Shown piece by piece: positions 43,001-58,409 of a DNA stretch of 64,000 nt. The notes beneath the pieces were generated by a model. That model made no database searches, was not told the DNA's origin, and was given only the letters and a program-made list of their open reading frames with translations. Each line of letters opens with the position of its first letter. Position 1 is the stretch's first letter. A program made the position numbers and the translations under genes. The stretch comes from a virus (lineage: Duplodnaviria > Caudoviricetes): the IMG/VR virus record IMGVR_UViG_3300044652_000025, positions 64,001-128,000 of that record. The stretch is one strand, 5' to 3'.

Positions 43001-44058
43001 TCGGGGAAAACGACCCGCTGGGTCGGCATGAGCAGCGACCCGAACTGGTCGATGCTGTAGGCCGACGCTCCGGCCAGGACGCCGTTGTAGCTCCACGCCT
43101 CGCCCTGGTAGCCGGTGAAAGGGGGGCGGGGCTGCTCGGTCGGATCGGGGGACGACACCAGGTAGGGGTCGACCGCTGTGATCGGCCGGGCGGCGACGTA
43201 GGAGATGACCTCCCAGTAGGTGCTGTCGGCGTAGGCGCCCCGCAACGCCACCGGCTCGTGGACCTCGATGCCCTCGTACTCGATGGTGTAGCGGCTGTCA
43301 GCGGGCTTGATGCGGTCCAGGATCCGGGAGAGGTTGTAGGACTCCTCCAGGGTGATGGGACGGTGGGGACGGACCACGAACACCCGCCGGGGGGAGTCGA
43401 GCCGCGGCAGTGGACTGCCCTCCAGGTCGCCGTAGGAGACGCCCTCCATGTCGGTGTAGGTGTGACCCGACGTCGGGCCGTACTCGGCCTCAAGCTCGGC
43501 GTAGGTCCGGTACCCGGCGTCGGCCTGGTAGTAGCTCTCCAGGACATCGCAGTCGACGGAGAGGACCGCTTCAGCGGCGAGTTCGATGCCGGTGGGGGTC
43601 GGGCCGTAGGAGATTGCCCGACCGACCTGCTGGATCCGGGAGCGGTAGGAGGTGTCCTTGGTGTGAGTGTCGGTCCACTCGGCGAGCGTGGCCGTGCCCT
43701 GGTACGGATCGGTGAGATAGCGCTCCAGGCTGTTGCGGCGCATCCCGAACAGCGAGCCGTAGAAGCGGTCGAGGTCGAAGAAGTGGGTGCCCTGGAGGGC
43801 CTGCTGGAGCCGCGAGAGTGTGAGCCGTTTCTTGATCTGGCCCACCCCGGCGTCGCCGAGGAGGACTTTCATAAATCTGACGACGTGGCTTTCGGCCGAG
43901 AGGTCGTAGACCTCCTCCACGAAGTGCCGGAGCCGCTCGCTGAGGTTCTCCGGCGGCAGGACGAGGTCGGTCGCCCGGTCGGCGCCCTGGGGTCTGGGGG
44001 CGCCTTCGACCGTCTGCTGCTGGAGGATGGCCGCCGTGGGTTGCGAGGTCAGAGTCAC
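40057..44058 (-). CDS. large baseplate wedge / tail protein
   Basis: Follows baseplate J; DLDRFYG..FG..R...YRSRI wedge (gpI-like) motif. Confidence 0.7.
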   Translation of the reverse strand: MTLTSQPTAAILQQQTVEGAPRPQGADRATDLVLPPENLSERLRHFVEEVYDLSAESHVVRFMKVLLGDAGVGQIKKRLTLSRLQQALQGTHFFDLDRFYGSLFGMRRNSLERYLTDPYQGTATLAEWTDTHTKDTSYRSRIQQVGRAISYGPTPTGIELAAEAVLSVDCDVLESYYQADAGYRTYAELEAEYGPTSGHTYTDMEGVSYGDLEGSPLPRLDSPRRVFVVRPHRPITLEESYNLSRILDRIKPADSRYTIEYEGIEVHEPVALRGAYADSTYWEVISYVAARPITAVDPYLVSSPDPTEQPRPPFTGYQGEAWSYNGVLAGASAYSIDQFGSLLMPTQRVVFPDGSYYDYPASAAVMPQRYVLAGRSASDAIVTAAPYSIPRAQAPTTNALVLARETMAPVYVDRVPLDQLVMSLGQTQFAVFKESLAQRYWTTPVRDAADNTADVIEVRISSPRIVNYITFEAAHYPQGISTEVYVEGQGWQEVHYETLSDSLPSFVNPTALDPKVGDPLHSAPGHWQKYSFRIDPVTTSRVRVLLRRINAQGPQLAGYSTVLNPHFVPYSLAIRNLDIGYRITERSDVAEANVAIATTTDILGSLVEFRLYEEPASNVLLSGGTKVWRSEPQPVNYAVVNLHLDCRDEYGNGQTIDRFLVDPVNSGAHITIYWSNDEGEPTDDSFFDDVVWTPLPRDYVLQKGFIHIPPTAARWFKFEFTNLTAQAYESFVPIIRRTKLFPRWIVESYRAKQTGIAAEAMPEGLAAAVDVMAPGKFRDSIFRPILDRPTSVYPTEALYATDPASTDRLRDLDFHFGLTTWHQENDAPRFTTTSRHTYEIVEVRHTTKLSFFVGLNSIQAYRLDFEADDDTQVYVDHFWDTHNLADGWTWTFFPNTLYSGTAPVQATSVVFGSRNNIYALQFATQQTEAVQILPDPDFVNPALATYSWDDPSSWQRVGDARLAWVGTDNSVSISRSVARIDRTESADPGPFMSLIEPVFSYRDRTVEDTTAELATNGGIVSPVVTPSPEVRIWAAARVILDTDLTSPLVLQILAGNDDTVLVEKEITGHKGEMLEWYVGHDVGIVYVPPPPPVHYQYRSLISPPVEPPLGDPAQVLTSGPPPLPPDDTTVRVRLIQRGKSNDAWRLDNLSLFDEGIIWEFSVDGGNDWLPGRGIRNNQYGVLVFPGPGNQLVWRARGMRPNVAINSLKIRPWYLGAKNSRQSGTMRGPNVSTYDHDPPISQDPEFTSWTIPIPRSWWYANRRYQSLPVEGLPDVTPYRQVYIRTADDDLSGHAGAETWGAIAGDAWGGVSDETWGELGVSGGVHDHADGEVIP

Positions 44059-45848
44059 GGCAGATAGCTGAAGAACGTATTTTGGGCCTTGACTACGAGT
44101 GTGACGGCGTTGAAGACCGGTAGGACGTCGTCGCCGATGATCACGTCGATGGCAGACCCATCCCGCTCGTAGCGCTCGATGAACGTTCCTGCCCGGCTCA
44201 TCCGTTCGATGGCCCAGTGCTGGGCCGCGCTGAGGTCGTGGTAGTTGTCGGCCTGGGTGATGAAACGCACCGCGTCGATCCCCGGTACCTGCTGGACGAC
44301 GCCGAGGAGGTCGGAGACCTGGACGACGTCGTTGAAGCCGATTCGACTGATGAGGTTGCTGAGAGCGGCCTCGATCGTGGGCTGGACAGCGCCGACGCTG
44401 AAGCCCGACGAGAGCATGACGGCCAGATAGAGGTTGAGGTAAAGGATCTTGGCCGCGTGGACCTGGACGTCGGTGGTGATCAGCCGCCAGACGCGGATGT
44501 CCGTGTCGACGTCCTGCGGCACGGAGTTGAAGACGTAGTCCACGGTGAAGACGCTCTGATCCGGCGGGATGGTCCCCGGCGGGCTCCCCGCCAGGGTCGA
44601 GAACTCAATCCCCGAGTAGGAGTGGACGGTGCCGCCGCTGTTGGTGATGTCATTGACGGCCCAGTAGTCCGTGCCCTCGTGGTAGGTGATCCCGTTGATC
44701 ACGAGTTCGTCGTCGACCGAGGCGTCGTCCACCGGCCCGATCGGATAGGGCACGAAGTAGTTGCCCGTCACCGGGCTCGTCCCGTCGAAGCGGACGAAGT
44801 TGAACCGGTTGAACTTGTCGCCGGGCGTGGTGTTGAAGGTCCGGGTCGTCCGGAACAGCAGCGTCGCTGTGGCCTTGGTCGGGTTGTCGCCGTTGACGTA
44901 GAGATCGACGCGGTTGGTCACGCCGTTGGCTGGGTCGTTGCGGGACGCGACGGGCAGATACTCGAACTCCAGGTCGTAGACGCCGTCGGTGACCTTGCTG
45001 GGATTGAGTACCGTCACGGTGTTGGTCGAGGGGTCGAAGCTGTAGTCGATGCCGGGCACGAAGATGCCGCCAGCGTCAATATTGGTCCCGAACACCGCCG
45101 ACCCGTCGTAGACGTAGGCGGCGTCATTGATCGATGAAGTGCCGGTCCCGCCGACGATCTCCAGCTGCTCCCGGTGCCGTTTGGACGCCCCGATGACGTT
45201 GGCCTGGGTGACGTGGGGGTTGTTGAGGGCCACGCCGAGGAACATCTGCTCGGTCCCGGCCAGGTTGCGGAAGACCGTCTTCTTGAAGCGGTCCCGTAGC
45301 TGGGCGTCGCTCTCCTGGTCGGCCCCGCCGGACATCGCCGTCGGGTTGGAGATCGACGCGATACCCGCCACCGAGGTGATCATCCGCTGGACGGAGTTGG
45401 CCGCCACGTTGCCGCTGGCACCGCCGAGGAGAGCCTGGACCGGCACCGAGACGCTGGTGTCACCGGCCAGGAGGATGGCCGGGGTCATCGTCTGGAATAC
45501 CACCGGGGTGGCGTCGCCGGTCGCCACTTGGGTGCCGAAGGCGATGGCGAAGTTGGTACCGACGGCGGCGCTGGTGCGCTCGAAGGTGACCGCCCCTGTC
45601 GCCCTCTTGGCCGCCAGCCGGGCGAACCCGAAGATCCCCACGAAGTCGTCGAGGTCGGTCCCGGTCTTGGAGTCGATGTCGTACTGGTAGTCGAGGAGGT
45701 AGGTGTCGACGCTCGACTCGGCCACCACCTCGGCGACGGCGTCAAGGATCTTGCGGACCGGCGTGCCGATCGAGGTGTCGAGGTCGGGCTCGGAGACGGT
45801 CAGGGCCTGACGCATCTTGGCCACCACGTCGTTAACGGTGACGGGCAT
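44055..45848 (-). CDS. baseplate J-like protein
   Basis: G.DLDD, ATGAVTF, GGADQESDAQLRDRF. Confidence 0.9.
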   Translation of the reverse strand: MPVTVNDVVAKMRQALTVSEPDLDTSIGTPVRKILDAVAEVVAESSVDTYLLDYQYDIDSKTGTDLDDFVGIFGFARLAAKRATGAVTFERTSAAVGTNFAIAFGTQVATGDATPVVFQTMTPAILLAGDTSVSVPVQALLGGASGNVAANSVQRMITSVAGIASISNPTAMSGGADQESDAQLRDRFKKTVFRNLAGTEQMFLGVALNNPHVTQANVIGASKRHREQLEIVGGTGTSSINDAAYVYDGSAVFGTNIDAGGIFVPGIDYSFDPSTNTVTVLNPSKVTDGVYDLEFEYLPVASRNDPANGVTNRVDLYVNGDNPTKATATLLFRTTRTFNTTPGDKFNRFNFVRFDGTSPVTGNYFVPYPIGPVDDASVDDELVINGITYHEGTDYWAVNDITNSGGTVHSYSGIEFSTLAGSPPGTIPPDQSVFTVDYVFNSVPQDVDTDIRVWRLITTDVQVHAAKILYLNLYLAVMLSSGFSVGAVQPTIEAALSNLISRIGFNDVVQVSDLLGVVQQVPGIDAVRFITQADNYHDLSAAQHWAIERMSRAGTFIERYERDGSAIDVIIGDDVLPVFNAVTLVVKAQNTFFSYLP

Positions 45849-46274
45849 CTAGCTCACCGCCCGCACGAGCGTGACCGGCGTGTTGTTGAGGGTGGTGACC
45901 GTCACCCGCACCGCGTAGGAGTCGTAGCTCTGCTGGATGTCGATGGCCTGGATGGTGTTGACCAATTCCCCGGCCGAGAAGCGGCTCCGATTCCCGAGCA
46001 TGGTGTCCCGCTGGAGCATCTGCCCCTGGACGAACTGGTAGTTCTGGATGAGGCGGGTGACCTCGGCCTGGATCCGCATGGACGCCTCATCCATGGCTGG
46101 CATCCCGACGTACTCATGGAGGAGCGACCCCCACCGGGGATGGAACCGGTCGGAGCCGTAGGGCTCGCGGACCGCGACGCCGAGATCCTGCTTGACTTTG
46201 GCTGGGCCGTCGATGGTGGCGTAGCCACCCGGCCCGATCACAAAGTCCCCATTGACGATCTGGAGTGTCTTCAC
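45849..46274 (-). CDS. baseplate wedge protein (gp25/GPW-like)
   Basis: EPYGSDRFHPRWGS. Confidence 0.8.
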   Translation of the reverse strand: MKTLQIVNGDFVIGPGGYATIDGPAKVKQDLGVAVREPYGSDRFHPRWGSLLHEYVGMPAMDEASMRIQAEVTRLIQNYQFVQGQMLQRDTMLGNRSRFSAGELVNTIQAIDIQQSYDSYAVRVTVTTLNNTPVTLVRAVS

Positions 46275-46301: not shown

Positions 46302-46559
46302 TCATGGGCTCATCCCTATGGCCCCGACGACCCAGACTCCCCCCGTCGTCACCTGAGCGGAGACGACTGCCTCGACATAGAAGTTGGCCACCCTCGATCG
46401 GATCTCAGGCTGGACGACCGCTTCGACGTACTCGTTGGCGACCCGCGACCGGATCTGAGGCTGAGTGGCGGCCTCGACGTACTCGTTGGCCACTCGGGCC
46501 GAGATGCCGCTCTGGGTTACGGCTTCGACGTACTCGTTGGCGACGCGGGCGGTGGTCAT
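46302..46559 (-). CDS. small protein of four 17-aa repeats (ARVANEYVEA)
   Basis: 51-nt tandem repeats; ATGA-coupled to the upstream gene. Confidence 0.75.
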   Translation of the reverse strand: MTTARVANEYVEAVTQSGISARVANEYVEAATQPQIRSRVANEYVEAVVQPEIRSRVANFYVEAVVSAQVTTGGVWVVGAIGMSP

Positions 46560-47635
46560 GTCGACGCTTGCATCCCAAACTCGGCGTTGTTGACGTCGGC
46601 CACGGTCCACGATCCGCCGCCGGGCTTGGTCTCGAAGACGCCGCGGGTGGCCCGGTAGGAGCCGTTGTTGAGTGCCGCCGCCGGGGCGGTGGTCTCGACG
46701 CCGCTGAGGCGAGCCACGTTGGTCAGCGTCCGGACCCCGGCATCGGTCTTCTGGGCGTTGGGGTAGGCGACGACGCCGTAGACCTGATTGGTCGTCGGGA
46801 GACCGCTGATGTCAACCATGTTGTACGTGTCCTTGTCACCGGTGTTGACGAAGTCCACATACGTCGTGGTATTGACATTGCTGTTAGTCGGCTGATGCTC
46901 CTGCACCAATGCCGAGTTATTGACCGAATCGCCGTCCGAACCGACGCCCATGATCGTGGTGCCATCCGAGGTGGGCCAGAGGCCGAAGATGCGGGGGCAG
47001 TTGAGGAAGTTGCCGTTGTTCACGGATCCGGCGCCGTTGCAGAGATAGAGATCGCAGAGGTACATCAACGCGACGCCGCTGCCGAGCTTCCACGACATGG
47101 AGTCGAGGGTCGACTTGGTACCGCCGTTCTTGGTGTCGACGCCGGTCAGGCTCAGAAGAGTGGTGCCGTCGATCGACACCGTCACCACCCCGACGGTATC
47201 GCTCAGCGTGCATTTCGCTTCGAGGTAGTACCACGTACCGGCGAGAGGGAGGACGGTCCCGGCATAGGATCCGAGCAGAGTCCCCGACGAGCCACCGCGG
47301 TAGGCGTAGATGCCCGCCCCCGCCGCCGAGCCGGGAGCGATCTGGATCGTGACATGCAGCGTCGCCATGGAGTCGGACAAGAAGCCGAAGACGTCGAACG
47401 GCGTGGCGGTGCTGACAGTGCCCTGCTTGATGGCGAATCCAGCCACGAATGTGACGTGCTCGTCAGAGGCGTCCACCTGTTTGATGATCGAGGCGGGCGT
47501 AGCACCGTTGCTGTAGGCGTCGACCCCGTTCGTCCGGGCGGTGGCATCACCCTGCACCAGCACGTTGTTGATGGCTGACCACTTGCCAGCGCTGAAGTCG
47601 GCTCCGACGAAGCTCTCGGTGAAGATCAGGCTCAT
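46556..47635 (-). CDS. beta-sandwich virion protein, paralog of 53300..54958
   Basis: MSLIFTESF...DLYLCNGAGSVNN...WTVADVNNAEFG. Confidence 0.7.
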   Translation of the reverse strand: MSLIFTESFVGADFSAGKWSAINNVLVQGDATARTNGVDAYSNGATPASIIKQVDASDEHVTFVAGFAIKQGTVSTATPFDVFGFLSDSMATLHVTIQIAPGSAAGAGIYAYRGGSSGTLLGSYAGTVLPLAGTWYYLEAKCTLSDTVGVVTVSIDGTTLLSLTGVDTKNGGTKSTLDSMSWKLGSGVALMYLCDLYLCNGAGSVNNGNFLNCPRIFGLWPTSDGTTIMGVGSDGDSVNNSALVQEHQPTNSNVNTTTYVDFVNTGDKDTYNMVDISGLPTTNQVYGVVAYPNAQKTDAGVRTLTNVARLSGVETTAPAAALNNGSYRATRGVFETKPGGGSWTVADVNNAEFGMQAST

Positions 47636-47642
47636 GCCACCC

Positions 47643-49496
47643 CTACGAGAAGTAGACCTGCACGGACAAATCCTTGGCGCCGGTCCCGGCGGTGGCCACC
47701 CGCACCTGGAGGTAGTCGCCGGGCGCGACGACGACCCCACTTGTACTGTTGGTGTAGACCCCGGCTGCCAGGGTCAGCGAGATCATGTCGGCCCCGTTCT
47801 TCATGAGGTAGACCACAGTCCCGGTCGACCCCGCCGTACCGAGCGAGGCCACGAAGTGGTTAAGGGTCACCGACTGGTAGGCGTACCAACGGCCCGAGGT
47901 CGCCACCGCCACCGCGCCGGGCATCGAGAAGACGGCGGGGAGCGGGAGGACGAGCACCCCGCCGACGGTGAGGTCGCCCGGCGAGGGCACCACGACGTGC
48001 TGGCCGTTGCCGAGCATGATCTGCTGGGCTGCCGTCGTGGCCGCACTCTGGCCGAGCGCCACCGAGCCGGTGTGCGACAGTCCGGTGGTGGCATTCAGAC
48101 CGAGGGCGACGCTGGCCTGGCCGATGGCGCTGGCGCCGCTCCCCAGAGCGATGCTGTCCTGACCTGAGGCGGTGGTGTTGTACCCAAGCGCGGTGGCGTA
48201 GTAGTTGTTCGCCCTCGCGCCGTGGGAGCCGCGGTTGGCGTCGCCGCTGCCGATGGCCACAGTGCAGTCGGAATACGCCTGGGGTCCTACCACTCCCGCC
48301 GGGGAACTGCCGATGGCGATCGACCCCTGGTGGTTGGCTTCGGCCCCGATCGAGGTGAGCGTGCCGGAGCCGATGGCGATGTTGTTGGACCCAGACCCGG
48401 CGCGGGCGTTGATACCGATGGCGACACCGAGATTGCCGTCAGCGAAGACGTCGCAGCCGATCCCGATGGAGTTGTACGCCGCGTATCCGCCGTACCCGAT
48501 GATGGTGGCGTTGTCAGTGGCATAGGCGCCGATGCCGATCGCCACACACTGTGGGCCACGGCCCTGGGCGCCAGACCCGATGGCCGTCGAGTAATCACTC
48601 ACGGCCTGGGCGCCGTAACCGAGGGCGGTGGTGCTGACACCCTGACCGAGCGAGAGCGCACCGATGGCGATGGCGTCCTGACCTGACGCCGCCGCGTTCT
48701 GCCCGATGGCGATCGTCCCGGACCCGCTGGCCGTGGAAGTGTCGCCGGAGTGATGGATCGCGATGCTGTTCGGTCCGGTCCCGTCGACGGAAAATGGGGT
48801 GACCGGTGGTGCGCCGGACGTATCTGGATGCCAGTTGAGGAAGACCGTACCGACCTCGCTGTCGCTGTAGCCGGTCACTCGGAAGTAGTAGGTCGTCCCT
48901 CGAATAGCCGTCAACGTGACGGCGCTGTTAACGGTGCTGAGCGGTGACGCCGTGTCGTCGTCGCTCGTCACCGCCGTGAGAGCGGTGAGCGCCGACCCGG
49001 TAAAGACCTCCAGGACGGTGTCCATCGTCGTGTAGTCGACCAGGTGACTACCGAGGGTGTCGAAGGACATGGATCCCGAACCGGTCGCCGTCCACTTGAA
49101 CCACAGCGAGTGGAGCCCCGGCCCTTCGTCGTCGATCAGGTAACCGGGATCACCCCACCGAGCGGGCTCGGTGGGCTCGACAGTGGCCGTCGAGTTGTCG
49201 ACCTGGACCGTCCCGTAGGCCCCTTCCAGCACCATGGCGTCGGCGAAGTTGTCAGGGACGGGAGCCTCTGCTGTACCCGATGGCGTCCCCACAAAGGCGG
49301 CGAACGACCAGTAGCCGTAGGGCCGGTCGATGATCCACGTCTCGCCGACTTCGGGGGCGGCGGCCTTGCCCGGCAGGACGTCGGTCCTGACCGTGTACTG
49401 CTGACCGAAACGGTCGTGGACGATGGCCTGGCTCCCGGTGACATCGGTGATCGTGCCGACGAAGCTGCGCGTCAGCTGGGCGGCAGGATGGTTCAC
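47643..49496 (-). CDS. baseplate spike-like protein with PPC-like domain and YadA head repeats
   Basis: N-terminal PEVGETW OB-like segment; DNFADA..WFKWTA..GTTYYFRV; many SIAIG/ALG repeats. Confidence 0.7.
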   Translation of the reverse strand: MNHPAAQLTRSFVGTITDVTGSQAIVHDRFGQQYTVRTDVLPGKAAAPEVGETWIIDRPYGYWSFAAFVGTPSGTAEAPVPDNFADAMVLEGAYGTVQVDNSTATVEPTEPARWGDPGYLIDDEGPGLHSLWFKWTATGSGSMSFDTLGSHLVDYTTMDTVLEVFTGSALTALTAVTSDDDTASPLSTVNSAVTLTAIRGTTYYFRVTGYSDSEVGTVFLNWHPDTSGAPPVTPFSVDGTGPNSIAIHHSGDTSTASGSGTIAIGQNAAASGQDAIAIGALSLGQGVSTTALGYGAQAVSDYSTAIGSGAQGRGPQCVAIGIGAYATDNATIIGYGGYAAYNSIGIGCDVFADGNLGVAIGINARAGSGSNNIAIGSGTLTSIGAEANHQGSIAIGSSPAGVVGPQAYSDCTVAIGSGDANRGSHGARANNYYATALGYNTTASGQDSIALGSGASAIGQASVALGLNATTGLSHTGSVALGQSAATTAAQQIMLGNGQHVVVPSPGDLTVGGVLVLPLPAVFSMPGAVAVATSGRWYAYQSVTLNHFVASLGTAGSTGTVVYLMKNGADMISLTLAAGVYTNSTSGVVVAPGDYLQVRVATAGTGAKDLSVQVYFS

Positions 49497-51928
49497 TTGG
49501 ACCCTCCCAGAGGCAGGGCGTAGAGCCCGCTGCTGTCGGTGGCCGAGATCGCGGTGACTGTCACCGAGGTGGTGAACCCCGAGCCGCGGAAGTCAAAGCT
49601 GTGGTTCACGCCCTTGACGTACATCTGGACCTTATAGGCGGGGATCTCCAGGATCATGCCGGGATATACCTCGGGCATGAAGGTGAGATTGACCTGGGAC
49701 GAGAACTGTTGCGCCCACGACTGCATCAGCAGGTAAATCGCGTACCAGAACTCAGTCAGCCCGGCGGGGATGAATGGCAGCTGCTGGATGTCGACCCTCG
49801 CTCCGTATCGCTTCAGGATCTTCTGGGGGTCGAGGAACAGATCGGCCCGCTTATCGGTGTTCGACTGGATGTTGAAAAGGGCGGCGAGAATCTGGGGGAA
49901 CTCCACCGAGGCGATGCCCTGCGAGGAGTAGATATCGGTCGGCAGAGAGGTTCCCGCCGCAATACCGGCCCCACCACCCGTCGGCGGGATATCGGTCCCG
50001 ACGACGAACTGGTGGGTGACGAGATACTCATCGGACCACTCGACCGTGAACCCGTCGCCGAGTAGTTCGATGGTCTCGACGGTCATCCGTCCGGCGGTGC
50101 CGTAGAAGCCGAAGTAATCGGGAAACCAGGCGATGAAGTCGCCGTTGGGGGCGGCCATGAACGACCGCATGGAGATGTTGGCGTACTGCTGGATGGTGCT
50201 GAGCAGGGGGGTGTCGTTCAGCAACATCCGGGCGCCGACGAGTGCTGTGCTTTCCGGATCAGCCTGCGGTGTCCAGCTGCTGGTGTCGGTCACCACCGGC
50301 ATCGCCCCGCTACCCGCGATGCCGATCGTGCCTGACGCTCCCTGCGTCACCGGCGCCGTCGCCCCGCCGTAATCCATCCCGGGGATCGTCCCGGCGTTGG
50401 CGAAGCGGTTCCCGATGCTGCCCTCGACGACGCCGTACTGGGTGCCCATGGCCTCGATGGTGTGAAGCCCGTCACCGACCGAGATCACCACATGGCTGGC
50501 GTCGGCCGGGAACATCAGTGCCCCCTGGGTCTTCGACGCCTGATCGACGGTCAGCGTCGTCTTCGCCGCCTGAATGGCCGCCCACTGCTCTTCTGACGTC
50601 CGGGGCAACGAGACCCCGACCCGTCCAGCCGCCCACTGCACCAGGGCTGAGCAGTCGAAGGCGCCCGGGTTCGGGTCCGAGACCTTGGGCTGAGCGCCCC
50701 AGACATAGCTGTCGCCGACCTGAGCCGCGGCGATGGTGATGAAGTCCTCTCTGCTCTTGCTGCCGGTACTGGCCGCCTGACCGGCGGCCTGTTGACTGTC
50801 GGTCGCTGGCGGCAGGGTGTACGGCCCCAGCTGGGCGCCGTCGGGGGCGAAGCGGATGTCGACCTGGACGTCGGTGGCTCCTGCGAGCGCGGTCTCCAGG
50901 GCGTACTGGCTCATGTCGATGACCCGGCCGGTACTGGTCGCCGGACCCCAGTCGGCGGCCCGGAGGACGACGGCCTTCTGGTTCACGGTGTTGATCACCA
51001 GGACGCGACGGCCGTTCCACCACTGTTTCGCCTTGTCGACGAGGTTGGACGGTACGGCAAGTGTGATCTCCCCGGCGGTGTTCATGACCGCGTAAGGCCA
51101 GCGCATGGCGCAGTACCACAGCCCCTGCGGATCCTCCGGCGTCCCGGGATGGAGCCCCGCCTCCTTGCTGAGTCCCATCGTGAATGGCGCCCCTCCGGAC
51201 GGACCGCCGAACCACGACGCCGTCCCGGAATAGGCCGGGAGCGCGCCGGTGGCGGTCCGGAGAGCAGGATCGGAGTCCGGCGCCACCGTGGTCGCCCCAG
51301 CCGAAGTGGGGGTGGCGCCGCCGATGGAGGCTCCGGTCCCGGTACTCGTCGCCTCGGGTGGTGTGGCGGGTGCCAGAACGGTCTGGAGCGACTGGTAGAG
51401 ATCGGAGATCTGCTTGGTCCAGACGGCCGGGATCCGGCCGATGTGGATGTTGGTCTGAGGCCAGTTGCCGACGTTGATGAGGAGCGACTGGAGCCGCGTC
51501 CGGAGCCCACCGTCGTCGTCGGCCTTCAGCTGGTCGGTCGTGGGAAGACCGACTCCCGGATGCATCAGCTGCACGGCGGCCTCCGAGCCCGGATCCCACA
51601 TGGTGTAGCGCAGCCGTTTGAGTGTGCATTGGCCGGAGAGGACGACAGTCCGGGGATAGACCGAGAAGTAAGGGGCTTGACTGATGTAGCCAGAGAAGGT
51701 CTGCATCCACTTGATGCGCTTCATCTGGACTGAGATGCGGTCGTCGGGAGAGAACACCCCGTCGTACTTGCGGCGGTGGTTGGCGAGGGAGAACGAGAAG
51801 CTGCCCAAGGCATTCTCGGCCATCCCGATGTTGCCGCCCACCAGGTCATCCGAGACGTCGATGATCTCGTCGAGACGCGTCGAATGGATGTGGACCCGGA
51901 CCGCGGGAGAGTAGATGAAGGTCGGCAC
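49493..51928 (-). CDS. baseplate hub with RlpA-like DPBB and NlpC/P60 peptidoglycan hydrolase domains
   Basis: GTASWFG...DWGP..RVIDMS; YVWGA..FDCS..HV..IEA; hub C-terminus FMPEVYPGM. Confidence 0.8.
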   Translation of the reverse strand: MPTFIYSPAVRVHIHSTRLDEIIDVSDDLVGGNIGMAENALGSFSFSLANHRRKYDGVFSPDDRISVQMKRIKWMQTFSGYISQAPYFSVYPRTVVLSGQCTLKRLRYTMWDPGSEAAVQLMHPGVGLPTTDQLKADDDGGLRTRLQSLLINVGNWPQTNIHIGRIPAVWTKQISDLYQSLQTVLAPATPPEATSTGTGASIGGATPTSAGATTVAPDSDPALRTATGALPAYSGTASWFGGPSGGAPFTMGLSKEAGLHPGTPEDPQGLWYCAMRWPYAVMNTAGEITLAVPSNLVDKAKQWWNGRRVLVINTVNQKAVVLRAADWGPATSTGRVIDMSQYALETALAGATDVQVDIRFAPDGAQLGPYTLPPATDSQQAAGQAASTGSKSREDFITIAAAQVGDSYVWGAQPKVSDPNPGAFDCSALVQWAAGRVGVSLPRTSEEQWAAIQAAKTTLTVDQASKTQGALMFPADASHVVISVGDGLHTIEAMGTQYGVVEGSIGNRFANAGTIPGMDYGGATAPVTQGASGTIGIAGSGAMPVVTDTSSWTPQADPESTALVGARMLLNDTPLLSTIQQYANISMRSFMAAPNGDFIAWFPDYFGFYGTAGRMTVETIELLGDGFTVEWSDEYLVTHQFVVGTDIPPTGGGAGIAAGTSLPTDIYSSQGIASVEFPQILAALFNIQSNTDKRADLFLDPQKILKRYGARVDIQQLPFIPAGLTEFWYAIYLLMQSWAQQFSSQVNLTFMPEVYPGMILEIPAYKVQMYVKGVNHSFDFRGSGFTTSVTVTAISATDSSGLYALPLGGSK

Positions 51929-52503
51929 TAGAACCCGGTGAAGTCGAGCGACCCAGCGTCGTAGAGCAGGTCATCGCCCATGTCGACGCCGCTCAATTGG
52001 GTGCCGCCCGGATAGAAGTAGGGCAACGTGTGGGTCGGGTCATCCGGAATGGAGAACTGGGAGATCGCCGTCGGCGCCTTGATGTTGCCGGTCCCGAAGC
52101 TGCCGATGGGATCGGCGGTACCGACGAAGGTCAGCGTCATCCGGTGGACAGTGGTGGTGCGGTTGTCGCCGAAGGTGACCCCGGATGAAGGAACGCCCAT
52201 CTTGTCGAAGCCGCGGCTGGGAACCGTCACCCGCATGGAGCCCACCTGGGGTGTGCCTGCCGCGGCGCGGTTGCCGTAGCCCTGGAGCCAGTTGCCGAGC
52301 GCCGTGTACTCCTCGTGGGTGGCGCAGGCGATGTGGATGGTGAAGGGGGTCGCCACTACCTGCTTGGCATAGAAGGCGGTGTCCATCCTGGTGTTGTCGG
52401 TGTCGTTGGTGAACTGGATGCCCCACTCGATCCGTTCGACGGACACCTGGACTGAGCCGTAGTTGGCCACGGCGAGCGTCCCGTTGAGGCGGCTGATGCT
52501 CAT
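51928..52503 (-). CDS. tail/baseplate protein
   Basis: Position; ATGA coupling. Confidence 0.6.
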   Translation of the reverse strand: MSISRLNGTLAVANYGSVQVSVERIEWGIQFTNDTDNTRMDTAFYAKQVVATPFTIHIACATHEEYTALGNWLQGYGNRAAAGTPQVGSMRVTVPSRGFDKMGVPSSGVTFGDNRTTTVHRMTLTFVGTADPIGSFGTGNIKAPTAISQFSIPDDPTHTLPYFYPGGTQLSGVDMGDDLLYDAGSLDFTGF

Positions 52504-53297
52504 GGTGCGGCCTCCGGGGCGTACCAGGGGGCGTAGACCGCTTCGAGGTCGGCGTCGGCGAGGTTGACGGCGATGCCGCCGGTGGTGAACCCGAAGCCCC
52601 CGAAGTCGACGAGGACGGGCTGGGCGTGGTCGTAGGGCACCGGCTGGCTCACTGGCACGTCCGAGGACCACACACGGATCGGCGATGTCGCTGCCCGCGC
52701 CTCGTTGGGGCGGATCGTGCGAAGTGTCGGCAGCGTCCCGCCTGGTTGGGCCTGGACCGCCAGACGGGTGTACCGGACGACGTGATCGGCCGGTGCCGGG
52801 AGGATCTCGACCCCGAAGCGCACGAAGAGTCGCTGGAGCGTGCCGGTGGCGGTGTCGGTCGGCGGCGGGACGCTCTCGGAGCCGGAACGGGGCGCCCTGA
52901 CGTAGGAGGTCGGAACGTCAGTGCCGGAGACCCCGTCGGTACCGGTCCGGGAGTAGGCGCCGACAATCGACGCGGTATCGCCCGGCGGATCGGTGCTGTC
53001 CGCCGTGGCCCGGATGGCGTAGAGGAGATCGAAAGAGACGGTGTCGGTGGTACCAGCGACCGAATCGGCCGTGCTGACGTTGTAGACATTGACCGGGTGG
53101 AGCAGAACCTCAACGGACTCGCGTGCCGTTCTGGCCTTCGGAGTTCCCTGGCCGAGCGCCTCGACTGAACCACGCGCCGTCCGGGCCTTCGGGCTCCCTT
53201 GCCCCAGGGACTCAACCGATTCCCGCGCCGTACGCGCCTTCGCCGTACCCTGCCCCAGGGCCTCGACGGACTCGCGGGCATCACGGCTGGTCGTCAC
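52500..53297 (-). CDS. virion protein with four N-terminal 17-aa repeats (ARTARESVEA)
   Basis: 51-nt repeats at about 53100-53290. Confidence 0.7.
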   Translation of the reverse strand: MTTSRDARESVEALGQGTAKARTARESVESLGQGSPKARTARGSVEALGQGTPKARTARESVEVLLHPVNVYNVSTADSVAGTTDTVSFDLLYAIRATADSTDPPGDTASIVGAYSRTGTDGVSGTDVPTSYVRAPRSGSESVPPPTDTATGTLQRLFVRFGVEILPAPADHVVRYTRLAVQAQPGGTLPTLRTIRPNEARAATSPIRVWSSDVPVSQPVPYDHAQPVLVDFGGFGFTTGGIAVNLADADLEAVYAPWYAPEAAP

Positions 53298-53299
53298 CC

Positions 53300-54958
53300 C
53301 TACGCACTCTTGAAAGCCGCGGTGACGGTCGAGTCCTGGGAGGCGGTGGTGGTCATCGTCTCAGTGGCCGACGCTCCGGCCGATGCCTGCACCACATCGG
53401 TGAACCCGGCCCAGACCCTGGCCCCAGGTCCCGCCAGCTGCGTCCGTGCCGCGGCAGAAGCCCCTGACAAGGTCGGGTTGCCGGGGTTGGGGTTGGCCCA
53501 GTGAGCGAAGCCGTAGACGACCAGATCATTGGCCAGGGTCGTGGTGACCGAGGCAGCGTTGATGTTGCCGCCACCACTCGATCCGCTGGAGACGTCGACG
53601 GGGCTGGACTGCACCACGCCGGAGTAGGCGGCGAAAGCAATGGCGAAGTCATTACCGCCGACGTTGCTCCAAGTGAGAGTGGCGCCGAGATCCCCGGCGG
53701 CGGCGATCTTGTACCACATCCCGGAGTTCAGGTTGGCGGTATTCACCTGCTGAATCGATGTCCAGCCGCTGGGCACTGTCCAGGTCGGCGTCCCGGCAAA
53801 GGACGACGCGACCATGGCCACCATGAGGTCACCGGTCTGGACGGCGGCCGGGACGGTGATGCTGGCGGTGTTGGCCGTACCGCCGCCGTTGGTGGCGCTG
53901 GAGGCCCGATAGGTGGGCGGTCCCGTCGAGGTGCGGTTCTCGACCCCGAACTCGGCCCCGTTGACTTCGGCGATCAACCACGCCGCAGCCGTCGCCGGAG
54001 ACTGGTCAAAGTACCGTGAGACCAACCCGAAGCTCGTACCGAGTGCTACATCCGAGCCCGGGTAGTTGGTGCCGCCGATGCGGGCCACCTGCCGGAAGTT
54101 CTGGGCGCCAGTGTCGGTCTTCTCGATATACGAGCGGTGAGCGACTCCCCGGACGAGTGATGTCGTAGCGACGAGATCGGCGTAGGCATAGGTGTCGATG
54201 TTGCCGAGTGTCCCGGTCTCAACGTATGTGGTGGTGACCGGCGATCCGGCTTCGTTGACCAGCTGGTAGTTGTTCACCGAGTCACCGTCGGAACCGACCC
54301 ACTGGCTGTAGTTGCCGTTGCCGTTCGGATAGAGGGTCTGGACGGAGCAATCGCCGAGGAAGTCGTTGTTGACCGACCCGGCGCCGTTGCAGATGTAGAG
54401 GTCGTCGATGTAGATCCCGTTGGCCATGAAGTCGTCCCAGAAGGCGATGCCTTCAAAGACGGTGTTGGTCCCGCCGTTCTTGGTGTTCTGGCCGGTGAGG
54501 TTCAGGACGTCGCCGCCGTTGAGACGAATGTTGACGACGCCGACAGTGGCCGAGAGAGTGACCTTGACCTCGACGTACTGCCACGATCCGGGGACGATGA
54601 TGTTGTTCGAGGTCTGGCCCAAGATCGTGTTGGTGGCGTAGACGGAGCCCCGCCGGGCGGTCAGCCGGTTGTTGGTGTCGAGGTAGATGGTGTCGTGGAT
54701 CGTGCCCCAGTTGTCGCTGTAAAAGCGCAGCAGTTCAGTGGCCGTGGCCCCGGCGGGTTTCATGGCGAAGCCGACGATGAAGGTGACGTGGGTGTCGGGC
54801 GTGTTGGCCAACCAACGGGAGAGATGCTGGTTGCCGGTCGGCATCAGCCCACAGGTCGTCCCGGTGCGCTGGTTGGCCGTATTCAGGGACATGGAGAACT
54901 GGTTCCACTTCGATCCCTGGAGGCCGTCGTCGAAGCCTTCGATGAACAGGAGACTCAT
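53300..54958 (-). CDS. beta-sandwich virion protein with an extra C-terminal domain
   Basis: MSLLFIEGFD...DDLYICNGAGSVNN...NGAEFG; then VQTGDLMVA..PSGWT domain. Confidence 0.7.
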   Translation of the reverse strand: MSLLFIEGFDDGLQGSKWNQFSMSLNTANQRTGTTCGLMPTGNQHLSRWLANTPDTHVTFIVGFAMKPAGATATELLRFYSDNWGTIHDTIYLDTNNRLTARRGSVYATNTILGQTSNNIIVPGSWQYVEVKVTLSATVGVVNIRLNGGDVLNLTGQNTKNGGTNTVFEGIAFWDDFMANGIYIDDLYICNGAGSVNNDFLGDCSVQTLYPNGNGNYSQWVGSDGDSVNNYQLVNEAGSPVTTTYVETGTLGNIDTYAYADLVATTSLVRGVAHRSYIEKTDTGAQNFRQVARIGGTNYPGSDVALGTSFGLVSRYFDQSPATAAAWLIAEVNGAEFGVENRTSTGPPTYRASSATNGGGTANTASITVPAAVQTGDLMVAMVASSFAGTPTWTVPSGWTSIQQVNTANLNSGMWYKIAAAGDLGATLTWSNVGGNDFAIAFAAYSGVVQSSPVDVSSGSSGGGNINAASVTTTLANDLVVYGFAHWANPNPGNPTLSGASAAARTQLAGPGARVWAGFTDVVQASAGASATETMTTTASQDSTVTAAFKSA

Positions 54959-55737
54959 GCAGTCCTCCCGAAGATGGCGGCCCGGCTGGCCGTGTTGTTC
55001 CATTCCGCCCGTAGCTCCTGCGGGCTGGGGATAGGCCCACCACCCAGGGCCAGCGAGGCGCCGTTGACGTTGACCCACCATTGCCTCAGCTGCTCATCCG
55101 TCGGAGGTGGCGGTGGAGCCGGTGGGGGATCACCGGTGGTACCGACGGCCGCCCCTCCGACCGTACCCGCCGGGGCGTTGCTGCCCGGCGTCTCCTGGAG
55201 TTGGAGGGCGTTGAGGGGCTGCTGGATCGTCGAAGCGAAGGAGGCGTCAACCGCACCACCGTTGTAGGCCGTCTCCTGCCATCCCATCCCGTCGGAGAGG
55301 CGAGTGATGAAGGCGTCCATCGCCACGGAATTGAGACGACCCTCGGTAGCGTCAGCGATCTGAAGGGTGAGTTCCCACCTCGGGCCGAAGTTGGCGTTGT
55401 CGAAGACGACGGAGGATCCTCCGGCGACGTCAGTGAAGGTCTTCAGGAAGACAAGGAAGTTCCAGCCCTTCGTCGGGTAGACGAACGAGACCGGATCGGT
55501 GGCAGGGTTGGTGACCTGGGTCGTACCGATCCGCTGGAGGAACGAGAGGAAGTCGACCTGCTCTTTCCATCCCCCGGCGAAGGCCCCGGTGATCGTGAGA
55601 TCACTCACCGAGGCTCCGTAGACCTGGACGACCTTGCCGCCGACCGTCTGGAGGTCGGCGACAAGCACGCTGTAGTTCCATTCGACCGCGGTCGGGTCGA
55701 CGTTGAAAACGCGCCCCGCCAGGCTAGCGATCCCCAT
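54955..55737 (-). CDS. tail tube initiator-like protein
   Basis: Directly after the tape measure; TVGGKVVQVYG motif. Confidence 0.6.
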   Translation of the reverse strand: MGIASLAGRVFNVDPTAVEWNYSVLVADLQTVGGKVVQVYGASVSDLTITGAFAGGWKEQVDFLSFLQRIGTTQVTNPATDPVSFVYPTKGWNFLVFLKTFTDVAGGSSVVFDNANFGPRWELTLQIADATEGRLNSVAMDAFITRLSDGMGWQETAYNGGAVDASFASTIQQPLNALQLQETPGSNAPAGTVGGAAVGTTGDPPPAPPPPPTDEQLRQWWVNVNGASLALGGGPIPSPQELRAEWNNTASRAAIFGRTA

Positions 55738-58409
55738 CAGCCGCCGACTCCGGGACTGCGGTTACCGGTGGCCAGATTGGCGATCGGAGGGTTGCTGCTG
55801 TTGGGGCCGAAGTTCGTCGATACCCCGGGTCCATAGATCCGGAGGAGGTTCGCCAGCGGCGGTGCCGCGTCGACCATGATCGTCGTCTTCGGCTTCGGCT
55901 TGGCCTGATCCTCGTTCTTCTTGATCAGTGCATTGACAGCATCCTGATCCTTGAGGCCACGCCCAATCCCAGCAAGCGACTTGTCGGACGCGCTCTTCGA
56001 CGGAATGTTCTCGCCCTTCATGCCGGTGATCTCCGCAACCGACTGGCCGATCTCGGACTTCGTCTGCTCGTTATGGCCCTTGACCAGCTGCGCGGTTCCA
56101 TTGGCCAATTGATCCGGGAAATGCTGGAGCGCTTCGGTGAAGTTGACCTGTCGAGGCCCGCTGGAGGTCTGGACGACGAACAAGTCCTTGCCGGTGATGC
56201 CTTGATCCCTGACCAGGGCGTCGATGACCGCGGACGAACCGCCGCGTCCCTGTGCATAGCTGAAATACGCCTGCTGCCAGGTGTCAGGCTGCGGCAGGGC
56301 CACATTGGGTTGCAGATCGGACGGGCTCTTACCGAGGACACTACGCGTCCACGCTCGTACATTGGCGGTCGACGAGAAGTTCACCGGCGCTGGGTTCTTG
56401 GCCGCGAATCCTCCCCCGGCAGCCATGGCCACCGTCGCTCCGATATTGCCCGGGGTCACGTTCTCCAAGCCGGTCTGGGCCATGAAGGCCTGGGCGGTGT
56501 CGGGATTGATGACGTTCTGGGCCAACAGGTCGGCGCCGATGCGCTGGATCACGCTGCTGCTGACCCGCTGGCTGGCGATGTCCTGGGGAGAGACGCCGTA
56601 CCGTGCGGCGATCTGGACGAAGCGGTTGTAGCCCGACGAGCCCGGAGCCAGTCCCATGAGCCCGAGGCTTCGCTGGATCAGGCCGTTGACGCCGCTGTTC
56701 AGCAGATTGCCGCCGCCGGGCTCTTGAATCTGGCCCAGTAGCTGCCCGTAGCTCTGCCCGGTCATCGGGGCAATCATCCGCAGCTGGGTGTCAGAGAGGT
56801 TGAAACCCAGACCGGACGCCGCCTGGCCGAACCCGGCGAAGTTCTGGGCCATCGACCCGGCGAGGCGGTTGGCGGCGGCGGTTCCGACCAGCGGGGTCAG
56901 ACCCTGTACCTGGGTGATGAACTGCTGGCGGGCCTGGTCGGTGTTGATCCCCGCCGCCCGAGCGGAAGCCGTCACGTTATCGAGGGAGTTCTGAAGGTCT
57001 CTGAAGCTCAGGTTGCTGTCCTTCAACTTCAGGTTGATCAGCGTCAGGGAGTCGCTGATGTCCATGCCGTACTTCTTGAACTGGGACACGGCGAAGTCCA
57101 GGGCTTCCTGACGTTCTCCGCCGCGTGTCGTCATCGACGAGACGCCCTCGAAGAGCCGGGCGGCGTCTTCACCGCTCAGGACCCCCATCTGGCCGAATTG
57201 GAAGGCCCGCTCCCTGGCCCGCTGCCCGAAGGCCTCGATCTGACTGCCGCCGTAGATGCGCTGCCAGGGGGCGTTGGCGGCCCGCTGCGAGGTCTCGAAG
57301 TTGAGGCCCGCCCGGACGAGGCCGTACCCGGCCAGGACCGGACCGGCGAATTCCCCGATAGCCGTGGCCGCTTCAGGGGCGACCGCGCTGAGGATGTCCC
57401 CGAAGCCACCGCCACCGGCGACCGCCTGACCGAGGTTGCCGACCATGCCCCGGCGCTTCTTCGACTGCTGGTAGGCATCGACTTCTTCCTTCGGTACCGG
57501 CACCCGCGGCTCGTTGGGATCGGCGATCCCCATGGCCTCGGCCTGGGTCCGTGACATCGGCCCCATGGCGGTGTCGATCATGTCCGGCCGCCGGTAGACC
57601 CATCGCGGCATCGGCCCCAGGGCGGTGTCCTCGGTGATCTGCTCGATGTCCGAACCCTGCCGGGGCGTATTGGCCCACTGAGTGAGCCGCTGACCGAACC
57701 GCTGGCGAAGAGTGCCGACCGTGGGGACCGGCTGACCCGGCTGCCACATCGGCGGCAGATCGCCCGCCGCTTCGTCAGGAGCAATGTCCTCGGTCCGCCG
57801 GACGCGTCCGCTGCTGGCCGGTGAGACCGTGAAGCCACCCTGGGGAACCGGATGCCGAACGCGGCTACTCGGCGCAGGCGTGGGCGCCTGGGTGATCGGC
57901 TGACCCGTCGGGTCGACGATCTCGACCTTCTGGACGTTGCCGCTGCTGAAGGCCGATCCGGTAGTGCGGATGGTACCGAAGCCCAGCGGCGTCGCCGGAG
58001 TCGGCGCCGGGGCATTGACGGGGGCTACCGGCCCGGTCGGTGTCCCGGCCACTGGGACGCTCACCGTGCCCGGACCCGTCGCGACCGGGGCTCCGGCTCC
58101 GGTCACTGCGGCGATCGTCGATTGCTGGGCGTCCTTGAGGGCCTGGTTGATCTGGTCGAGCCCGCCCTTGAGGATCGCCTGGAAGCCGTTCGGACCGGGA
58201 TCGCCGAACATGGCCAGAGCGTCGGCCGCCCGCGACAGGTCCGTCTGCATCGCCACCAGGGTCTGCACCGCGCCCTGGGTCGTCTGGAGCGAGACGTCGT
58301 AGCCCGGCGCCAGGGCGGGCTGGGACCGCGCCTGACGGAGTAGGGGATCGGCCGAGAACCCCGGCTGGGGTGTACTCGGCAGCGGCGGAAGGGGGACCTT
58401 GTCGGGCAT
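55737..58409 (-). CDS. tape measure protein
   Basis: Ala/Gly/Gln-rich helical protein following the tail chaperones. Confidence 0.75.
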   Translation of the reverse strand: MPDKVPLPPLPSTPQPGFSADPLLRQARSQPALAPGYDVSLQTTQGAVQTLVAMQTDLSRAADALAMFGDPGPNGFQAILKGGLDQINQALKDAQQSTIAAVTGAGAPVATGPGTVSVPVAGTPTGPVAPVNAPAPTPATPLGFGTIRTTGSAFSSGNVQKVEIVDPTGQPITQAPTPAPSSRVRHPVPQGGFTVSPASSGRVRRTEDIAPDEAAGDLPPMWQPGQPVPTVGTLRQRFGQRLTQWANTPRQGSDIEQITEDTALGPMPRWVYRRPDMIDTAMGPMSRTQAEAMGIADPNEPRVPVPKEEVDAYQQSKKRRGMVGNLGQAVAGGGGFGDILSAVAPEAATAIGEFAGPVLAGYGLVRAGLNFETSQRAANAPWQRIYGGSQIEAFGQRARERAFQFGQMGVLSGEDAARLFEGVSSMTTRGGERQEALDFAVSQFKKYGMDISDSLTLINLKLKDSNLSFRDLQNSLDNVTASARAAGINTDQARQQFITQVQGLTPLVGTAAANRLAGSMAQNFAGFGQAASGLGFNLSDTQLRMIAPMTGQSYGQLLGQIQEPGGGNLLNSGVNGLIQRSLGLMGLAPGSSGYNRFVQIAARYGVSPQDIASQRVSSSVIQRIGADLLAQNVINPDTAQAFMAQTGLENVTPGNIGATVAMAAGGGFAAKNPAPVNFSSTANVRAWTRSVLGKSPSDLQPNVALPQPDTWQQAYFSYAQGRGGSSAVIDALVRDQGITGKDLFVVQTSSGPRQVNFTEALQHFPDQLANGTAQLVKGHNEQTKSEIGQSVAEITGMKGENIPSKSASDKSLAGIGRGLKDQDAVNALIKKNEDQAKPKPKTTIMVDAAPPLANLLRIYGPGVSTNFGPNSSNPPIANLATGNRSPGVGG

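Follow-up and report, generated by a model that had tools for sequence, protein, structure and literature searches.

A widespread gene pair in phage tail regions: a lectin-like protein and a short-repeat partner as a candidate carrier-and-cargo decoration

Introduction

Why should one phage carry, twice in its tail region and in diverged form, a gene for a beta-sandwich protein directly followed by a gene for a protein of short tandem repeats? The question is raised by the IMG/VR virus record IMGVR_UViG_3300044652_000025 (Duplodnaviria; Caudoviricetes), a 151,490-base record rated complete, of which bases 64001-128000 were analysed (64,000 nucleotides, nt; hereafter the window). The beta-sandwich proteins are called A1 and A2 here, and their repeat partners B1 and B2. 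As judged from sequence comparison, A plus B is a widespread unannotated module that is not peculiar to the source phage; it takes in the protein family phrog_2448 for A and phrog_13560 for relatives of B. We propose that the module is a carrier-and-cargo tail decoration in which a tail-anchored B recruits its cognate A through the repeats, a reading to which we give an even chance. Binding of A to the repeats, its stoichiometry and ligand binding by A are what we infer.

Two paralogous gene pairs in one genome

The four genes are listed below in window positions (aa, amino acids; E, expect value).

53300..54958, minus strand: A1, 552 aa, from the open reading frame (ORF) and its translation; match to phrog_2448 at E 6e-35.
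52500..53297, minus strand: B1, 265 aa; GTG start 2 nt past the A1 TAG; four 17-aa units at residues 4-71 (nt 53085-53288), unit ARTARESVEALGQGTPK.
46556..47635, minus strand: A2, 359 aa, consisting of the A module only; match to phrog_2448 at E 8.5e-25.
46302..46559, minus strand: B2, 85 aa; ATG start overlapping the A2 stop as ATGA; four 17-aa units at residues 4-71 (nt 46347-46550), unit ARVANEYVEAVTQSGIS.

A preliminary description of this DNA, made from the letters alone, had called the two A genes paralogs, and this held: A1 and A2 are 36% identical across the whole of A2 (E 2e-50), and the alignment includes the motifs that had been listed. Both proteins belong to phrog_2448, a family listed as of unknown function, whose profile of 335 positions was covered from 39 to 334 by A1 and from 19 to 333 by A2. 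No Pfam family at E 0.01 and no NCBIfam model matched either protein. In a search of 5.8 billion proteins, more than 400 homologs of A2 were found, mostly 335-360 aa in length.

The A module occupies residues 1-343 of A1 and comprises a ConA/LamG-like jelly roll and a conserved C-terminal beta-sandwich. Residues 345-552 (nt 53303-53926) form an additional beta-rich domain of approximately 208 aa that resembles stand-alone viral proteins of approximately 190-240 aa. A correspondence between this extension and the N-domain of repeat proteins was considered but is not relied on; the match was weak for the protein downstream of A in locus L010 (26% identity, E 6e-4), and P0186 gave no support. The best cultured or deposited match to A1 was LR756511.1, an unannotated 595-kb record of an uncultured 'huge phage' (31.5% identity) with three A-like places.

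It was also borne out that each A gene is directly followed by a gene with four 17-aa repeats. At the DNA level, the repeats form 51-nt arrays at 53108-53264 and 46362-46550 (Tandem Repeats Finder). B1 and B2 both start MTT[AS]R, their four units are in register, and the fourth unit diverges after approximately 11 residues; the two repeat blocks are 39% identical (E 1e-9). Following the repeats, B1 has a Ser/Thr/Asp-rich linker and then a C-terminal anchor domain of approximately 55 aa (nt 52509-52685), and B2 ends in a 14-aa hydrophobic tail containing Gly and Trp. Tiny partners with tails of this GW type were also seen in loci L007, L038, L030, L024 and L031.

The repeat core can be written as: small residue, R, x, S/T/A, Q/E, x, x, hydrophobic, E, hydrophobic, hydrophobic. 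Conservation of repeat period and number, which had been noted for the two pairs, applies to B1 and B2 and to the B1 orthologs (266-272 aa, 36-42% identity), all of which keep four units. It does not extend to the family, in which a protein may have from 2 to approximately 7 units and a period from 17 to approximately 22 aa.

Searches of Pfam, NCBIfam and PDB sequences gave no meaningful match to B1 or B2, and neither protein matched the TIGR02218 baseplate hub model or, at E 0.01, phrog_13560, a family of small repeat-only proteins of unknown function. Relatives of the repeat block in L010, L033, L039 and P0153 do match phrog_13560 (E 1e-6 to 1e-10). A tblastn search of cultured phages with B1 returned no match, nor did a megablast search with the region. 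Within the window, the hidden Markov model (HMM) of the repeat unit matched only B1 and B2, and the entire 151-kb genome contains two copies each of A and B and no more.

Pairing of A and B genes across phages

Related loci were fetched from IMG/VR using the alignment of A homologs. In total, 80 loci were obtained, 76 of which have downstream DNA. Repeats were searched for with an iterated HMM of the 13-residue core in ORFs of at least 40 aa on both strands, and at least two matches were required. Among the 7031 ORFs of the window and the 80 related loci, 63 had at least two matches, and all 63 were on the strand of the A gene.

By the strict HMM, 50 of the 76 viral loci have a repeat gene as the immediate successor of their last A gene; by eye, the count rises to approximately 60 of the 76, because divergent units escape the HMM. 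The preliminary description had staked its reading on co-occurrence of the two families in other genomes, and they do co-occur strongly. The same pairing was present in 8 of 19 contigs from metagenome-assembled genomes (MAGs), which included Actinomycetes, Acidimicrobiales, Saccharibacteria, Limnocylindria and others. Two or three A genes in tandem are often found ahead of a single repeat protein.

Two named phages illustrate these sets. In Mesorhizobium phage Cp1R7A-A1, two A genes are followed by a 103-aa repeat protein. In Achromobacter phage AchV4, the A-like genes gp25-27 are followed by gp28, the N-terminus of which has two repeat classes. The AchV4 gp28 gene (L110:18255-19991) encodes five units of an A-Q-F-A-Q-V-L type and then six of a T-R-V-T-x-T-S type with a period of approximately 22. 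A DUF2793-like tail fibre, together with the three A-like genes, precedes gp28, and the fibre-then-A order is shared with Cp1R7A-A1.

Evolution of the repeat units

The units within one protein are alike in sequence and old by their codons. Synonymous differences among same-residue codon pairs were found in 40 of 66 pairs in B1 and 26 of 67 in B2, which is near saturation, and the family-wide synonymous fraction was 0.50 over 43 distinct proteins. On the strength of this synonymous divergence, the likeness is not put down to recent duplication or to gene conversion. Identity of the 13-aa core was 62% within one protein and 35% between proteins. Positions that vary across the family are also held alike within a protein, reading T-A-R-E-S in B1 and V-A-N-E-Y in B2. 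Because the units resemble one another within a protein despite their age, each unit seems to be under the same lineage-specific constraint, a pattern that would follow if every unit contacted one and the same surface of the partner.

The diversity of the units was compared with the number of A genes. Intra-protein repeat identity was 0.64 in proteins with one A gene upstream (n = 31) and 0.51 in those with at least two (n = 7); the one-sided Mann-Whitney p was 0.02, a value not corrected for phylogeny. Locus L055 has two A paralogs upstream of a partner whose units fall into two distinct classes, and AchV4 has three A-like genes and two repeat classes. The L055 partner (L055:7679-8107) is 142 aa in length and contains four units of a 21-aa class, then three of a 17-aa class.

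These data bear on the most trivial account of the locus, namely that a recent local duplication and low-complexity repeats give adjacent but functionally unlinked genes an accidental resemblance. The two cassettes do lie within 9 kb of each other on the same strand. The paralogs, however, are merely 36-39% identical, synonymous sites between units are near saturation, and the pairing recurs in dozens of unrelated phage contigs from several host phyla. We regard this account as highly improbable.

Predicted fold of A and presence of its family in virions

The AlphaFold2 (AF2) model of A2 had a mean predicted local distance difference test score (pLDDT) of 90 and a predicted template modelling score (pTM) of 0.90. 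In the model, residues 1-204 form a ConA/LamG-type jelly roll (Foldseek probability 1.0). VIA-align placed residues 1-216 within the ConA-like fold, with Z scores of 12-16 to lectins, carbohydrate-binding modules (CBMs) and lyases. The lectin-like domain named in the preliminary description is thus consistent with the modelled fold, which is predicted to be of a lectin or CBM type.

Phage structures matching the A2 jelly roll included the CBM of mycobacteriophage Douge BppU gp23 (Z 14.7, 181 residues), the receptor-binding domain of TM4 gp23 (Z 12.6) and the Dit CBM2 of phage J-1 (Z 12.8). The Douge BppU domains bind mycobacterial glycans (PMC13033339). By sequence, neither A1 nor A2 matched a Pfam model of the clan (e.g., Laminin_G_3) at E 0.01, and the sole sequence-level match to A in PDB was a weak one to a CBM6 (E 0.006).

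Residues 205-359 of A2 form a second beta-sandwich that matched only unannotated, mostly viral clusters, some of them stand-alone proteins of 140-160 aa. This C-domain is more conserved across the family than the N-domain (mean top-residue frequency 0.58 vs. 0.45). The two-domain fold recurs with template modelling (TM) scores of 0.7-0.8 in Sphingomonas phage Kharn, Vibrio phage VpV262, Roseovarius phage 1 and many Casjensviridae.

The jelly roll could also belong to an enzyme. Five of its residues (R113, E139, K141, D195 and Y197) are invariant or nearly so across the A family, and lyases were among the top fold matches to A2 (6kcw/6kcv, Aly36B; 2zzj; 3a0n; 5gmt). The top matches were to alginate and glucuronan lyases, with Aly36B at E 1.8e-8 and PL20, PL14 and Chlorella virus vAL-1 at Z approximately 15, and together with the near-invariant residues they make an enzymatic role possible. 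In addition, the homolog of A in Pseudanabaena phage Pam4 was labelled a polysaccharide lyase by its depositors. A lyase of the PL7/14/20/36 type would be expected to have catalytic Lys/Tyr (or Arg/Gln/His/Tyr) residues in its cleft, and K141 and Y197 are conserved in the A family. That A is a beta-jelly-roll polysaccharide lyase or depolymerase and not a lectin is a possibility we take seriously, though we think it rather unlikely: many non-catalytic lectins and CBMs share the jelly-roll fold with equal scores, and the one PDB match at the sequence level was to the CBM6. An enzymatic A would be compatible with any model of its attachment.

A-family proteins are found in virions. AchV4 gp25 and gp26 are members of the family by HMM (E approximately 1e-20), and both were detected in purified virions by liquid chromatography-tandem mass spectrometry (PMC7996906). 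Together with the location of both window pairs amid tail and baseplate genes, this agrees with the earlier suggestion of two virion positions.

Anchoring of the repeat block

The repeats usually begin at residues 2-5 of the partner, and the remainder of the partner is highly variable. The following types of partner were seen. The first has repeats and a short tail only (53-100 aa), and several of its members end in a Gly-Trp motif like that of B2. The second is a long fibre-like protein of 300-900 aa. The third, in 'Tetraselmis viridis virus' S20, is a TIGR02218 baseplate hub of the phage and gene transfer agent type (E 7e-53, residues 232-497). The fourth is a protein with an Asp-box-containing domain and N-terminal repeats. 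The fifth, in locus L025, is a 1766-aa protein with a direct fusion of just the jelly-roll (LamG) half of A to repeats. Natural fusions of full A and B were not found among longer homologs of 630-2000 aa, which is weak evidence.

Distinct C-terminal modules recur in small and long partners (L042, L049, L066, L012, L023 and P0233): several of them close with tandem W-[DN]-G-[ST]-A-[FWI] motifs, and for many of the long ones the last element is a conserved L-E-F-E-G-V-x-[IL]-x-G motif. S20 (L001, NC_020840) is filed as an algal virus; its tape measure, TIGR02218 hub and A gene form a module of the alphaproteobacterial siphophage type, and its host attribution looks doubtful.

The neighbouring genes in the source phage, which bear on where B may be anchored, are as follows.

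59894-61321, minus strand: sheath.
55737-58409, minus strand: tape measure.
54955..55737, minus strand: 260-aa protein (phrog_2786) encoded next after the tape measure; one of the conserved genes beside the slot of the B1 anchor.
51928..52503, minus strand: 191-aa protein after B1; 32% identical to the gene after a stand-alone 63-aa homolog of the B1 anchor; conserved neighbour of the slot of the B1 anchor.
49493..51928, minus strand: 811-aa baseplate hub-type protein with an NlpC/P60 domain.
47643..49496, minus strand: fibre-like protein of 617 aa, encoded immediately ahead of A2 and containing YadA-head repeats.
44055..46274, minus strand: wedge genes directly after B2 (gp25/W-like, 45849-46274; baseplate J, 44055-45848).

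The last 55 residues of B1 match dozens of stand-alone proteins of 60-70 aa; no Pfam family was matched, and DUF7397 was reached only at E 0.06. Contigs with such a stand-alone homolog have, in this order, genes for a 198-aa protein, the 63-aa protein, a 197-aa protein and the hub. Those around the 63-aa gene are homologous to the 260-aa, 191-aa and 811-aa genes of the window (32-36% identity, E 1e-25 to 5e-73). Members of this large stand-alone family look like small, conserved parts of the baseplate in this lineage of myophages. From the shared gene slot, it would appear that the A1 gene and the repeat-linker arm were added to a small core baseplate protein, so that the non-repeat end of B would lie in the baseplate with the repeats free. 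Anchoring of the repeat arm to baseplate parts, as indicated by B1 and by the S20 hub fusion, fits the scaffold that had been proposed for this locus.

The polarity might also be the reverse of this, with A as a baseplate-bound socket and the N-terminal repeats as a plug that fastens B, whether a fibre or a small connector, to the virion. Such a plug would account for the position of the repeats, since they lie at residues 2-5 of nearly all partners and the N-termini of fibres are usually attached to the tail; many partners are indeed long and fibre-like, and the C-domain is the conserved half of A. Four points speak for the opposite. The C-terminus of B1 appears to be a conserved baseplate component, present in relatives without A or repeats; the S20 repeats belong to a hub protein; two to seven plugs on one chain are more than a socket ought to require; and the variable ConA-like domain of A looks like an outward, ligand-binding end. 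The reversed polarity thus seems to be disfavoured by B1 and the S20 hub fusion, and we consider it distinctly improbable.

Genome setting of the two pairs

The source is a high-GC myophage (GC approximately 66% in the window) with a contractile-tail module on the minus strand at 40-62 kb. The first part of the gene order is: sheath, assembly chaperone, tape measure, 260-aa protein, A1, B1 and 191-aa protein. The order then continues with: 811-aa hub-type protein, 617-aa fibre-like protein, A2, B2, gp25/W-like protein, baseplate J and a 1333-aa protein. The A1/B1 pair sits amid inner-baseplate and hub genes, and the A2/B2 pair amid wedge genes.

Two of the neighbours have features of their own. 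The 811-aa protein contains an internal NlpC/P60 peptidase at residues approximately 405-496, and its C-terminus matches baseplate-hub PHROGs; it is likely a cell-wall-degrading tail hub. The 617-aa protein is an adhesin-type fibre with YadA-head (trimeric autotransporter adhesin) repeats, and the phage is an actinobacteria-like high-GC myophage.

A single-chain model of A with its repeats

In locus L015, the B gene is in frame 24 nt after the A gene. Reading the two intervening TGA codons as Gly gave a single chain of A, a 9-residue linker and B, which was folded with AF2; the alignment supplied comprised homologs of A together with five rows for B. A was modelled with high confidence. The first repeat formed two strands (345-349 and 352-357) with a block pLDDT of 66-78, and repeats 2-4, which have no A available, were below a pLDDT of 40. 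One ordered repeat for each A is what docking would predict for a 1:1 chain, and the model points weakly in that direction.

The same model can be turned to another account, in which the repeats self-assemble: strands of several B chains, or of one chain doubling back on itself, would form an oligomeric beta shaft or stalk, and A would attach elsewhere or bind the finished shaft in a ratio unrelated to the number of repeats. Repeats 2-4 being unstructured in a monomer is as expected if partner chains are needed. Strand-plus-loop repeats with Gly/Pro-rich loops resemble those of fibre shafts in general character, the repeats are N-terminal in long fibre-like proteins, at the end by which fibres usually oligomerise and are attached, and the last unit is regularly more hydrophobic, like a cap. 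The conserved positions of the repeat, on the other hand, are polar or charged (R, S/T, Q, E) and do not follow a hydrophobic-core pattern, and non-structural positions are also identical within a protein. Moreover, the repeat classes multiply along with the A paralogs, one repeat is ordered beside A in the L015 model, and partners of 53-70 aa, which are little but repeats, are hard to picture as shafts. On balance, a self-assembling shaft seems unlikely, though less so than the reversed polarity.

Discussion

Under the carrier-and-cargo reading, A would be the displayed unit. Its variable N-terminal jelly roll would most likely be the glycan-binding (or glycan-cleaving) end and face outwards to the cell envelope, and the more conserved C-terminal beta-sandwich would most likely be the attachment end. 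B would be the carrier, with its short strand-plus-loop repeats as docking sites for the cognate A and its non-repeat part fixing the arm to the tail. The anchor of B1 would be the small conserved baseplate protein near the hub, and that of B2 the short hydrophobic tail of a protein encoded beside the wedge genes. Since the pairs have diverged, each A should recognise its own B, giving two separately addressed lectin-like sets on one baseplate. The simplest reading would be one A per unit, and hence a hypothetical 4:1 ratio of A to B, as in the display of four domains by each scaffold that had been suggested before.

A number of observations weigh against this proposal. There are A genes that lack a repeat partner: that of Brevundimonas phage Leszy, four Pirellulales MAG loci and approximately one quarter of the viral loci. 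The repeat protein of AchV4, gp28, was not among the virion proteins detected by mass spectrometry (PMC7996906). The number of repeats (2 to approximately 7) bears no simple relation to baseplate symmetry. S20, L025 and P0165 each have a LamG-type domain joined covalently to the repeats, immediately ahead of them, so repeats also occur in proteins in which one jelly roll or more would not have to dock. In the L015 model, finally, the artificial tether is short and the alignment behind the B part is shallow, and the ordered repeat could be an artefact of proximity.

The Pirellulales loci (L103-L106) all lie on one 7.4-Mb MAG contig, on which four A-like genes of approximately 310-410 aa are present and none is followed by a repeat gene. 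They may represent a cellular use of the fold, or several prophages.

A broader form of the carrier-and-cargo reading is offered more tentatively, and we would put it at somewhat below an even chance. In this form, a portable array of 17-22-aa units would serve phages of all three tailed morphotypes as a scaffoldin in miniature; every unit would capture one cognate A via the C-domain; divergence would produce orthogonal pairs and thereby several separately addressed glycan-binding sets per virion; and the array could be grafted onto a hub, a fibre or a small baseplate protein.

Several known systems share parts of this design. In function, A/B would be comparable by analogy to peripheral adhesion devices (BppU/BppL, evolved Dits and branched tailspike adaptors), whose glycan-binding modules are joined to the tail by a co-encoded adaptor; it belongs to none of these devices by sequence or by fold. 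The peripheral baseplate devices of the BppU/BppL type (TP901-1 type; Douge gp23, PDB 8ZDO) likewise consist of an accessory baseplate protein with carbohydrate-binding jelly rolls at the tail tip. They have no sequence relation to A/B, and their CBM lies within, or is bound via, globular carrier domains, whereas the carrier here is made of tandem 17-aa units and A has a conserved C-domain of its own without a solved relative. In the branched tailspike adaptors of the CBA120/G7C type, several docking modules of one tail protein recruit adjacently encoded receptor-binding proteins. Those modules are folded domains on trimeric tailspikes, however, and have no sequence or fold relation to B.

Cellulosome scaffoldins carry tandem cohesins, domains of approximately 150 aa, that bind dockerin-bearing enzymes. 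The logic would be the same as that proposed here, with tandem docking units recruiting carbohydrate-active modules and paralogous pairs giving orthogonal addressing. The likeness is one of analogy only, and the units of B are peptides of 17-22 aa in place of domains the size of a cohesin. A second conceptual analogy is with chaperone-usher donor strands: a short amphipathic strand may complete or extend the beta-sandwich of its partner, and the ordered repeat in the L015 model is a strand pair. Pilins have one donor strand per subunit, unlike the tandem array of B. The triple beta-spiral shafts of adenovirus fibre and reovirus sigma1 also belong to viral attachment organelles and also consist of short strand-turn units in tandem, of a length close to that of the B repeats. 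Such shafts are homotrimers with a period of approximately 15-16 aa, alternating hydrophobic positions and a Gly/Pro turn; the period of B is 17 aa in the window and up to approximately 22 aa elsewhere, and conservation falls on polar or charged residues (R, S/T, Q, E).

The preliminary description had not recognised a described appendage system in these genes. A described structure or function for the module was likewise not found in the literature on the baseplates of Douge and other mycobacteriophages, Casjensviridae, Chi-like phages and Pam4; any impression that the genes are special to this phage does not stand, as the module is widespread. As far as our literature searches went, an adaptor of tandem 17-22-aa peptides has no described phage counterpart, and we see a substantial probability that the way in which A is attached is novel in its own right.

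The more than 400 homologs of A and the two PHROG families lie in the host-recognition region of phage genomes and have no assigned function, Pfam family or solved structure. Phages with A homologs infect Actinomycetota, Alpha-, Beta- and Gammaproteobacteria, cyanobacteria, Saccharibacteria and others. Even if docking proves false, the strict pairing of the genes and the selection that holds the repeats alike within a protein need explaining. If docking is true, the module would be a simple, modular means of attaching receptor-binding proteins, would explain many tail genes now called 'hypothetical' and would improve the annotation of host range. It would also provide a compact pair of peptide tag and domain for displaying binding modules on phage tails.

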